Program-made: the position numbers
Source of the DNA: Escherichia coli
GTDB lineage: Bacteria > Pseudomonadota > Gammaproteobacteria > Enterobacterales > Enterobacteriaceae
DNA length: 64,000 nucleotides
Assembly (NCBI RefSeq): GCF_013315695.1
Contig: NZ_CP054353.1
Reading direction: 5' to 3' (one strand)
In this document: positions 33,001 through 36,000 of the stretch, piece by piece
Position numbering within the stretch: the stretch's first letter is position 1
How the letters are laid out: each line of letters starts with the position of its first letter

Positions 33001-36000
33001 ACCGGAGGCACACAGCATACCGGTAGAAAGCCAACGGTTTACCGTTACGCCCTGCTCGTTCTTTTCAATAAAGTTAGCGTCACGGTCAGCTTTCATCAGC
33101 TTCGCAATACGGGAGAATGCTTCATCCCAGCTAATACGCTGCCATTTATCAGAACCTGGCGCACGATATTCCGGGTAGCGCAGACGGTTTTCGCTGTTGA
33201 CGTAATCCAGCAAACCGGCCCCTTTCGGGCACAGCGCACCACGGCTTACCGGATGATCCGGGTCACCTTCAATGTGATAAATCGCTTCTCTGGCGTTTTT
33301 CGCGCCATCACCCAGGCTATACATCAATAGCCCGCAACCTACGGAACAGTATGTGCAGGTGTTACGGATCTCTTCAGCGCGTAATAATTTGTAGTTTCGC
33401 GCCTGAGCCAGTGCTTGCTTTGGGGCAAAGCCCAATGCCGCTACTGTTGTTCCAGCCATACCGCCCGCGCAGATTTTAAAAAATTGTCTGCGACTGACGT
33501 CCATTGCTTTCCTCTTTTTTCAGGGGTATTACTGCGCGAGGAAACTAACAGTAAAATTCTGAATCTTTTTGCGCGAAATCAAAAAGAACACGTGTTTGCC
33601 ACAAAATAATCCGCCTGCGCAAATTGACCTACCTCAATAGCGGTAGAAAAACGCACCACTGCCTGACAGGCCAGTTAAAAAAATGCTATAAAATTCAGCT
33701 TAATTTTTAACGGCAAGAGAGACAAAACAGCGAGCATGACACGACAAAAAGCAACGCTCATAGGGCTAATAGCGATCGTCCTGTGGAGCACGATGGTAGG
33801 ATTGATTCGCGGTGTCAGTGAGGGGCTCGGCCCGGTCGGCGGCGCAGCTGCTATCTATTCATTAAGCGGGCTGCTGTTAATCTTCACGGTTGGATTTCCG
33901 CGTATTCGGCAGATCCCGAAAGGCTATTTACTCGCCGGGTGTCTGTTATTCGTCAGCTATGAAATCTGTCTGGCGCTTTCCTTAGGATATGCGGCGACCC
34001 GTCATCAGGCGATTGAAGTGGGTATGGTGAACTATCTGTGGCCCAGCCTGACAATTCTCTTTGCCATTCTGTTTAATGGTCAGAAAACCAACTGGCTGAT
34101 TGTACCAGGATTATTATTAGCCCTGGTTGGCGTCTGCTGGGTGTTAGGTGGTGACAATGGGTTACATTATGATGAAATCATCAATAATATCACCACCAGC
34201 CCATTGAGTTATTTCCTGGCGTTTATTGGTGCGTTTATCTGGGCAGCCTATTGCACAGTAACGAATAAATACGCACGCGGATTTAACGGAATTACCGTTT
34301 TTGTCCTGCTAACGGGAGCAAGTCTGTGGGTTTACTATTTTCTCACGCCACAACCAGAAATGGTATTTAGCACGCCAGTCATGATTAAACTCATCTCTGC
34401 GGCATTTACCTTAGGATTTGCTTATGCTGCATGGAACGTCGGTATATTACATGGCAACGTCACCATTATGGCGGTAGGTTCGTATTTTACGCCCGTCCTT
34501 TCCTCAGCGCTTGCAGCCGTGCTGCTCAGCGCCCCGCTGTCGTTCTCGTTCTGGCAAGGCGCGCTAATGGTCTGCGGCGGTTCCCTGCTCTGCTGGCTGG
34601 CGACACGTCGTGGCTAAAATAATTGTCGGGTCTACGGCCCGGCAGTTAATCAGATAAATTCCGACAATATAAAAAATAAATTTCAAATACCAGTAGTTCA
34701 CCTTATATTTCATTTCGACTTCGATCACATATCGATAAATAATATTATTTCATCTATTTTTCTCATTGTGTTTAATCACCATTCCATTTTAAAAACAGTA
34801 TGTCATTTATAAATGACGTCGTTTAAAATTCGTTTAGAAAATACGTTTAACGATAATTAAAAGGATTCTGTTAAATGAAATTAAAAATAGTTGCGGTGGT
34901 TGTAACTGGTTTGTTAGCTGCGAACGTAGCACACGCTGCCGAAGTCTATAACAAGGATGGTAATAAACTCGACCTTTATGGCAAGGTTACCGCTCTACGT
35001 TATTTTACTGATGATAAGCGTGACGATGGTGATAAAACTTATGCCCGTCTCGGCTTTAAAGGAGAAACGCAAATCAATGATCAAATGATTGGTTTTGGTC
35101 ACTGGGAATATGATTTTAAAGGCTATAACGATGAAGCCAACGGCTCGCGCGGTAACAAGACCCGTCTGGCCTATGCAGGTTTAAAAATTAGTGAATTTGG
35201 CTCTCTGGACTATGGTCGTAACTACGGTGTCGGCTATGACATTGGTTCATGGACCGATATGTTGCCAGAATTTGGTGGCGATACCTGGAGTCAGAAAGAT
35301 GTCTTCATGACATACCGTACTACCGGTGTGGCAACCTATCGCAACTACGATTTCTTCGGCTTAATTGAAGGTCTGAACTTTGCCGCGCAATATCAAGGCA
35401 AAAATGAACGCACTGACAATGGTCATCTTTATGGTGCTGACTACACGCGTGCCAATGGTGACGGTTTCGGTATCTCCTCAACTTATGTTTATGATGGCTT
35501 TGGTATCGGTGCGGTGTATACCAAATCCGATCGGACAAATGCGCAGGAAAGAGCCGCTGCTAATCCTCTCAATGCCTCCGGTAAGAATGCAGAACTGTGG
35601 GCTACAGGTATAAAATATGATGCCAACAACATCTACTTTGCAGCTAATTACGCTGAAACATTAAACATGACCACCTATGGCGATGGTTATATCTCTAACA
35701 AAGCACAAAGTTTTGAAGTAGTGACACAATATCAATTCGACTTCGGCTTGCGCCCATCACTCGCTTACCTGAAATCGAAAGGCAGAGATCTGGGCCGCTA
35801 CGGCGACCAGGACATGATTGAGTATATCGACGTTGGTGCGACGTATTTCTTCAACAAAAATATGTCGACCTATGTTGATTATAAAATCAACCTGATTGAT
35901 GAAAGCGACTTTACCCGTGCCGTAGATATTCGCACCGATAACATCGTCGCAACGGGAATTACCTATCAGTTCTAACATCCTCTCCTGACCAGCCCTTCTC

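Follow-up and report, generated by a model that had tools for sequence, protein, structure and literature searches.

We report that the porin gene at positions 34875 to 35975 of a 64,000-nucleotide stretch of Escherichia coli DNA (contig NZ_CP054353.1; the whole stretch is referred to as the window) is very probably an intact orthologue of ompD, the gene for the major Salmonella porin OmpD, that codes for a classical trimeric 16-stranded porin and is ancestral at the yddG locus. The contrast between an intact gene in some strains and a fragment in others is already known (PMC3079680, PMC2808357). Specifically, the gene appears as Z2239 of O-island 62 (Okeke 2011, PMC3079680), where K-12 yddL was noted as similar to the 5' end of Z2239, and the copy in strain 042, Ec042-1601, was described as an "apparently functional ompD" (Chaudhuri 2010, PMC2808357); since it was reported in 2010-2011, the porin gene is to be regarded as real but ordinary. 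Here we provide data on its orthology, its distribution among E. coli genomes and its likely regulation.

The porin gene and its product

The first-pass annotation had described an intact 366-residue porin with a signal peptide and a C-terminal TYQF, located between yddG and leucine-rich repeat (LRR) genes. Both the gene and its position are as described: a single uninterrupted open reading frame (34875 to 35975, plus strand, ATG start, no internal stops according to ORF listing and translation) is preceded by yddG and followed by two LRR ORFs, and no disrupting mutation was found in it. The features of the region are as follows.

33736-34617, plus strand: yddG, aromatic amino acid/DMT exporter (NF008676 equivalog, 471 bits; Pfam EamA), the upstream neighbour that anchors the synteny
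34618-34874, plus strand: yddG-porin intergenic region, presumed promoter and 5' UTR, AT-rich (27.6% GC)
34861-34865, plus strand: AAGGA, Shine-Dalgarno-like, 9 nt 5' of the ATG, kept in Salmonella and C. koseri
34875-34937, plus strand: predicted signal peptide of 21 residues (alignment with the OmpC, OmpF and PhoE cleavage sites)
34938-35975, plus strand: mature porin barrel of 345 residues and stop codon (Pfam Porin_1, PDB matches, AF2 model)
35265-35279, plus strand: PEFGG motif of the constriction loop L3, residues 131-135 (porin alignments)
35987-36020, plus strand: intrinsic-terminator-like hairpin with 9 pairs (6 G-C) and a T-run behind it, starting 12 nt 3' of the porin stop

Judged from its sequence, the product belongs to the OmpC/OmpF/PhoE family of general porins and is intact. 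Residues 27-366 match the Pfam Porin_1 profile (PF00267) over its entire length (1-337 of 337; 446 bits, E=1.3e-133), and the crystal chains of OmpK36, OmpC and OmpF cover the whole mature protein (E ~1e-126), with the mature PDB chains aligning from residue 22. In the alignment with the OmpC, OmpF and PhoE precursors, A21, A22 and E23 are invariant; the predicted Sec signal peptide ends in A-x-A and is followed by AE(V/I)YNKDGNK. In loop L3, neither porin alignment shows any variation at P131, E132 or G134, and F133 and G135 are present in at least 90% of 35 sequences. All residues corresponding to the basic (K37, R58, R97 and R148 of the precursor; K16, R42, R82 and R132 of mature OmpF) and acidic (D128, E132 and D136; D113, E117 and D121 of mature OmpF) sides of the pore are invariant. 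The protein ends in GITYQF, and its last three residues (Y364, Q365 and F366) do not vary among 35 porins. The AF2 model (moderate pLDDT of 70) has 16 long strands and a short N-terminal piece; it is weak at L3, with pLDDT <50 at residues 133-153. Foldseek aligned this model with OmpC, OmpK36 and OmpF (2J1N, 6RD3 and 1OPF) at TM scores of 0.81-0.88 and E ~1e-40.

From what is known of the family, the 21-residue signal peptide would route the porin through Sec and the C-terminal TYQF would be recognised by BAM as a beta-signal. The product would then be a trimeric general-diffusion porin of 16 strands, trimerisation being expected from the family, with a water-filled channel narrowed by L3 (PEFGG and the acidic D/E/D residues) opposite the basic ladder of K, R, R and R. 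By analogy with its relatives, it would allow passive diffusion of small hydrophilic solutes below ~600 Da, including beta-lactams.

Relationship to Salmonella OmpD

As in the window, fdnI-fdnH-fdnG (minus strand), yddG and a porin gene follow one another in Salmonella enterica, C. koseri, E. cloacae and E. albertii, and the S. enterica porin at this locus is named OmpD by NCBI. The window porin is 77% identical to the syntenic C. koseri porin and 73% identical to Salmonella OmpD; among the K-12 paralogues, the values are 61.6% for OmpC, 60% for OmpF, 62.6% for OmpN and 59% for PhoE. The first-pass term "OmpC/OmpF-like" is right with respect to family type, while the closest named relative is OmpD (73% vs 59-63% for the K-12 porins). 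Accordingly, the neighbour-joining tree places the window porin in the OmpD/NmpC clade. Homology also extends upstream of the gene: a five-way alignment that includes the Salmonella ompD upstream region has conserved blocks over ~175 nt 5' of the ATG, and blastn alignments with Salmonella and C. koseri begin at window position 34788, 87 nt 5' of the ATG.

Salmonella OmpD (STM1572) thus resembles the window porin in its location downstream of yddG and beside the divergent fdnGHI genes, in its homologous 5' leader, and in its signal cleavage site, L3 motif, pore residues and C-terminus, all of which match. It differs in the external loops L1, L2 and L4-L8 (gaps and substitutions) and in what lies downstream, where Salmonella has GFA-smvA-smvR and the window has LRR/EspR1-like genes instead. 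OmpC, OmpF, PhoE, OmpN and the Klebsiella porins OmpK36 and OmpK37 have family and fold in common with the window porin (59-63% identity, TM 0.8-0.88), but are paralogues at other loci and under other regulation.

Deletion alleles, selection and expression

In MG1655, the gene at the same position, yddL (b1472), encodes 96 residues, of which the first 93 are identical to the window porin and are followed by KNL and a stop. The K-12 gene was described in the first-pass annotation as a short remnant, which agrees with this comparison; there is no intact K-12 ORF. YddL has the same promoter region and first 93 codons as the window gene, but codons 94-366 are gone and the remnant is unable to form a barrel. 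We identified two common deletions, here given in window coordinates (no strand).

35153-36700: segment of 1,548 bp absent in K-12 (blastn against MG1655, junction read base by base)
34694-38850: second common deletion, of the 4.2-kb type, with 12 bp in its place and yddG joined to narU

The K-12 deletion covers the last 823 bp of the porin gene together with its terminator, the intergenic region beyond it and the beginning of the first LRR gene, and has a CGG microhomology at its junction. The deleted segment has the same size as O-island 62 of EDL933 (size from PMC3079680). Examples of the yddG-narU allele are SCU-176 and one O127:H6 genome. K-12 is, on the sequence comparison, the derived state in which the porin was lost through deletion. 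The suggestion that the strain studied here has an "extra" porin is therefore to be reversed: the gene is an ancestral resident, orthologous by position to Salmonella OmpD, and it is K-12 that lost it. Two old deletions (1,548 bp and 4.2 kb), together with rare independent events, removed the porin from most other E. coli. Moreover, K-12 yddL is best read as an ompD stump, and not as a small protein with a function of its own as suggested in PMC9976479.

Population counts were based on 5,426 complete E. coli genomes. The porin gene is present in 1,101 of these (20%), a number that refers to full-length copies, with the intact ORF confirmed for four (the window and O157 by translation, AR_0013 and 042 by RefSeq CDS annotation). 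The K-12 junction was found in 3,140 (58%), the yddG-narU junction of the larger deletion in 1,119 (21%), and other states in 66. The locus therefore represents a three-allele polymorphism that is usable as a lineage marker. In the literature, carriers are placed in ECOR group D and related strains; those identified here include O157:H7, EAEC 042 and the window's own lineage. Z2239 of O157:H7 and Ec042-1601 ("ompD") of EAEC 042 are the same gene as the window porin. The window and 042 genes are 99.8% identical in nucleotide sequence across the 3' 811 bp, while the window and O157 alleles differ by 19 synonymous and 4 non-synonymous changes (~2.5% nucleotide divergence; 98.9% amino acid identity with G93D, G183S, T284A and R304I). 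The corresponding dN/dS of 0.055 shows that the porin is under purifying selection. It is also dispensable, since ~80% of E. coli do without it and with no obvious harm.

These data bear on whether the gene is used at all. Given the AT-rich upstream region and its weak promoter matches, the gene could be silenced in the manner of the quiescent porins ompN and nmpC; the porin would then be intact but transcriptionally silent under ordinary conditions (e.g. through H-NS) and contribute little to permeability. The promoter scan of the upstream region gave sigma-70-like matches that were weak (the best 9/12; 10 found vs 5.4 ± 2.5 expected) and no strong one, and the dispensability of the gene in ~80% of the genomes points in the same direction. 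Likewise, our search of the literature for expression or function of the E. coli gene (yddL, Z2239, Ec042-1601 etc.) returned mentions in genome comparisons only, with no experiments and no report of expression. On the other hand, a dN/dS of this size over ~2.5% divergence speaks for a protein that is made and under selection, and Salmonella ompD, which is highly expressed, has a conserved leader, ribosome binding site and terminator in common with the window gene. We therefore consider quiescence to be possible but on balance unlikely.

The small RNAs that act on Salmonella ompD provide some insight into how regulation might differ. For SdsR we computed duplexes with the published 14-32 seed, as folding with full-length SdsR gave meaningless long duplexes. 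The validated Salmonella target sites of MicC (+67 to +78) and SdsR (+39 to +51) are not kept in the window allele: the predicted MicC seed duplex is -13.9 kcal/mol (z=0.0) vs -20.8 in Salmonella, and the predicted SdsR duplex is -9.7 (z=0.3) vs -21.1 (z=-4.0). For RybB, the seed site persists, though with two G.U pairs (predicted -13.7 in the window allele vs -18.3 in Salmonella). As the MicC and SdsR sites are not conserved, what is known about OmpD regulation is not simply transferable to the E. coli gene. Repression by MicC, SdsR and RybB through sites early in the coding sequence concerns regulation and is no criterion for OmpD orthology.

Competing identities, naming and consequences

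It was suggested by Okeke et al. (PMC3079680) that the whole island was recently acquired, in which case the porin would be part of a low-GC island (O-island 62) and a truly extra, horizontally gained gene. The base composition is in line with this suggestion, with 31-36% GC in the adjoining LRR genes and 44% in the porin gene compared to ~50% in the flanks. However, yddG and the porin are also neighbours in Salmonella, Citrobacter, Enterobacter and E. albertii, the DNA upstream of the porin is homologous across genera, and K-12 has clean microhomology deletions rather than an empty site; it is the LRR part alone that stands where other genera have GFA-smvA-smvR. Recent acquisition of the porin is thus very improbable.

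Even less probable is a duplicate or allele of ompC, which is what the RefSeq/PGAP label of the gene ("porin OmpC", symbol ompC) implies. The label follows from a match to the NCBIfam model NF007841 ("porin OmpC") at 493.3 bits, just over the cut-off of 484, but NF007841 is a subfamily model and not an equivalog. The identity to K-12 OmpC is below that to OmpD, the genuine ompC locus in K-12 is ftp-ompC-micF-rcsD whereas the window gene is at fdn-yddG, and strain 042 has a separate ompC of its own, Ec042-2456 (PMC2808357). Locus and phylogeny together refute the OmpC identity, and the label is misleading, as it reflects a subfamily-model match and not orthology. In a spread sample of 40 matches, all 39 full-length copies were labelled ompC/porin OmpC, and more than 1,000 complete genomes have the porin named ompC in RefSeq; due to this naming, automated screens for porin loss can count the wrong gene. 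As a separate database observation, the 90% cluster that contains the window porin has 9,017 members and is represented by a 603-residue LepA from Roseburia, which is a clustering artefact.

Equally improbable is an NmpC/Lc-type porin carried by a prophage: NmpC (DLP12) and Lc (PA-2) are also in the OmpD/NmpC clade (67-68% identity) and OmpD is often equated with nmpC in the literature, but these are genes of lambdoid prophages, whereas the window porin is chromosomal and syntenic across genera, has neighbours (fdn, yddG, narU and narZ) without phage genes, and clusters in the neighbour-joining tree with the syntenic chromosomal genes and not with DLP12/Lc.

With the window gene taken as the OmpD orthologue, the data can be joined into a broader proposal that we put forward tentatively, as it is somewhat doubtful in its entirety. 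The yddG-linked gene may be the true E. coli orthologue of OmpD, instead of the prophage gene nmpC that is usually named in the sRNA and porin literature, and the ~20% of strains that carry it, O157:H7 and EAEC 042 among them, may express it as their third or fourth general porin. Sequence changes in the region coding for the signal peptide may have freed it from control by MicC and SdsR. Whether a lineage has or lacks the gene may in turn help to determine, in a way so far unrecognised, its beta-lactam permeability, its phage and colicin receptors, and its antibody targets.

The practical value of the finding is modest and no long-standing question is opened by it. The effects on outer-membrane permeability and on susceptibility to phages and colicins that the first-pass annotation anticipated are reasonable for a member of this porin family. 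Carriers have one general porin more than K-12, which could soften the phenotype of ompC or ompF loss in studies of antibiotic resistance. Finally, Salmonella OmpD has been cited as the target of a protective antibody response (PMC2808357), and in carrier lineages of E. coli the porin could add a target for phages, colicins or antibodies.

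The porin gene and its product

At 34875..35975 (+), the first-pass annotation had described an uninterrupted OmpC/OmpF-like porin gene (hereafter the window porin) between yddG and a leucine-rich-repeat (LRR) islet; the ORF listing agrees exactly and both neighbours were recovered, with yddG upstream and two low-GC LRR ORFs downstream. The features of the gene and its surroundings are as follows:

33736-34617, yddG (NCBIfam equivalog), upstream of the porin gene
9 nt 5' of the porin ATG (+), AAGGA (sequence reading)
34875..35975 (+), porin ORF, 366 codons plus stop, ATG start, 0 internal stops
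35987-36010, G+C-rich hairpin (9 pairs) with a T-run, 3' of the porin stop

The protein matches Pfam Porin_1 over the full length of the profile (E=1.3e-133), and the crystal chains of OmpK36, OmpC, OmpK37, OmpF and PhoE align with it end to end (E 1e-127 to 1e-104). In a 7-way alignment (window porin, Salmonella OmpD, the Citrobacter koseri orthologue, and K-12 OmpC, OmpF, OmpN and PhoE) the signal-peptide cleavage context is conserved, and the basic ladder (OmpF K16, R42, R82 and R132; window K37, R58, R97 and R148), the acidic residues of L3 (OmpF D113, E117 and D121; window D128, E132 and D136), the PEFGG motif of L3 and the C-terminal YQF are invariant; the differences from the other porins sit in gapped segments, i.e. 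external loops. The full-length Porin_1 match and the retained pore residues and C terminus thus bear out that the porin is intact. An AlphaFold2 model based on 35 input sequences, of moderate confidence (pLDDT 70, pTM 0.68, L3 poorly modelled), has the expected 16 strands and superposes with OmpC, OmpK36 and OmpF at TM 0.81-0.88. By analogy with the OmpF/OmpC family, the protein would be exported by Sec and cleaved after AHA, handled by periplasmic chaperones, inserted by BAM via its terminal-Phe beta-signal and trimerised, and small hydrophilic solutes would diffuse passively through its L3-narrowed pore.

The window porin belongs to a 90%-identity protein cluster of 9,017 members whose representative is, through a clustering artefact, a 603-aa Roseburia LepA/EF4; as a result, homologue search does not show the E. 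coli porin cluster.

Orthology to OmpD and the K-12 deletions

Salmonella enterica, C. koseri, Enterobacter cloacae and E. albertii all share with the window the order fdnI-fdnH-fdnG (minus strand), yddG, porin, and the S. enterica porin at this locus carries the NCBI name OmpD. On the downstream side of the porin lies, in the other genera, a GFA-domain gene, followed in Salmonella and Citrobacter by smvA and smvR before narU, whereas E. coli has the low-GC LRR genes in that place. Identity to the window porin is 77% for the syntenic C. koseri porin and 73% for Salmonella OmpD, compared with 67-68% for the prophage NmpC/Lc type and 59-63% for K-12 OmpN, OmpC, OmpF and PhoE. A neighbour-joining tree places it within the OmpD/NmpC clade, outside OmpC, OmpN, OmpF and PhoE, and about 175 nt of non-coding DNA upstream align with the Salmonella ompD leader. 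On the basis of synteny, identity, tree and upstream alignment, the window porin is orthologous to OmpD in both position and sequence, and it is ancestral at the locus. The implied addition of an extra porin to this strain does not hold, given the synteny in four other taxa and the deletions in E. coli: most E. coli have lost the gene, and K-12 represents the derived state. The GC content is 44% for the porin and 31-36% for the LRR genes; of the two, only the LRR genes have the look of imported DNA, if any import took place.

Within the fdn region, the 195-aa ORF at 32917-33504 (-), whose last residues are DNQARV, encodes the N-terminal portion of FdnG and closes at an in-frame stop codon that is presumably its known selenocysteine UGA; on related contigs gene callers give the same split (195 aa + 803 aa).

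In MG1655 (K-12) the porin position is occupied by yddL (b1472; 96 aa), of which residues 1-93 are identical to the window porin before the sequence ends in KNL. According to a blastn comparison and a base-by-base inspection of the junction, window 35153-36700 (1,548 bp) is absent from K-12, with the break point at a CGG microhomology; the deletion takes away the 3' 823 bp of the porin gene together with the terminator behind it and the beginning of the first LRR gene. The earlier suggestion that yddL is a remnant is therefore correct: aligned with yddL and other porins, the K-12 ORF is truncated and the window ORF undisrupted. The size of EDL933 O-island 62 (PMC3079680) is the same as that of this deletion. 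K-12 has a second deletion (approximately window 37024-37665), which sits at 11 bp that the two LRR genes have in common, ATTGATTTATC:

37013-37023 and 37666-37676, copies of ATTGATTTATC flanking the second K-12 deletion

Because of this deletion K-12 yddK is a chimera of both LRR genes, and not the inserted gene that PMC3079680 proposes.

Both LRR ORFs (window 36139-38724, 31-36% GC) are weakly similar to the LRR portion of SlrP/IpaH-type effectors. The first is split across two frames (36139-36348 and 36239-37405), and the RefSeq annotation of strains AR_0013 and 042 shows no more of it than a pseudogene fragment. The other ORF (37468-38724, 418 aa) has an O157 counterpart named 'T3SS effector leucine-rich repeat protein EspR1' by PGAP.

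Distribution among E. coli genomes

The states of the locus were counted in 5,426 complete RefSeq E. coli genomes, the full-length state being defined by the 3' 811 bp of the porin gene at ≥80% coverage.

States of the porin locus in 5,426 genomes
Full-length porin: 1,101 (20.3%)
K-12 deletion junction: 3,140 (57.9%)
yddG joined to narU, window 34694-38850 replaced by 12 bp: 1,119 (20.6%)
Other states: 66 (1.2%)

Full-length carriers include O157:H7 strains, EAEC 042 and AR_0013, the last being 100% identical to the window across the 1,541 bases queried, and a protein identical to the window porin is on record for at least 1,000 contigs. SCU-176 and one O127:H6 genome exemplify the yddG-narU junction, and THO-008, among the other states, has an independent 1.1-kb deletion. 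The window and O157 alleles differ by 19 synonymous and 4 non-synonymous changes, and this dN/dS of 0.055 indicates purifying selection where the gene is retained.

In E. albertii CP034213 the orthologue at the same locus is split by IS1 (5137-7014 of its locus sequence) into 85-aa N-terminal and 337-aa C-terminal pieces, which is another independent inactivation.

Predicted regulation, naming and earlier literature

Duplexes were predicted between K-12 sRNA sequences and published target sites (PMC3333887, PMC4911921).

Predicted duplexes, Salmonella ompD versus window allele
MicC, seed site +67..+78: -20.8 kcal/mol (z = -2.6) versus -13.9 kcal/mol (z = 0.0)
SdsR 14-32, site +39..+51: -21.1 kcal/mol (z = -4.0) versus -9.7 kcal/mol (z = 0.3)
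RybB, seed site +19..+26: -18.3 kcal/mol versus -13.7 kcal/mol (two G.U pairs)

The Salmonella ompD sites for SdsR and MicC are not conserved in the window porin (codons 7-26, window 34893-34952), the MicC seed site having two synonymous changes, and the RybB seed site is retained with two G.U pairs. These predictions suggest that sRNA control may have been rewired, and on this reading Salmonella OmpD regulation cannot simply be transferred to the E. coli gene.

In RefSeq/PGAP, all 39 full-length matches listed, out of 1,101 carriers, have this OmpD orthologue under the symbol ompC and the product name 'porin OmpC'; the label arises because the window porin scores 493 bits against a subfamily cut-off of 484 bits, and carrier genomes therefore probably have two genes labelled ompC.

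That an intact porin corresponds to the K-12 remnant is already known. Chaudhuri et al. 2010 listed "an apparently functional ompD (Ec042-1601)" among six intact EAEC 042 porins (PMC2808357), and Okeke et al. 2011 described the yddG-narU island (Z2239-Z2242; 042 orfs 1601-1599), with K-12 yddL resembling the 5' end of Z2239, as present in ECOR group D, O157/O55 and some Shigella (PMC3079680). No experiments on whether the E. coli gene is expressed or what it does turned up in the literature searched. As the gene is under purifying selection and its leader, RBS and terminator are conserved, we consider it rather likelier to be expressed than quiescent. Some of the published work treats OmpD and the prophage gene nmpC as equivalent (PMC3333887), and a recent paper raises the possibility that yddL is a small osmotic-stress protein (PMC9976479); against both, the synteny argument is a useful clarification rather than a discovery.
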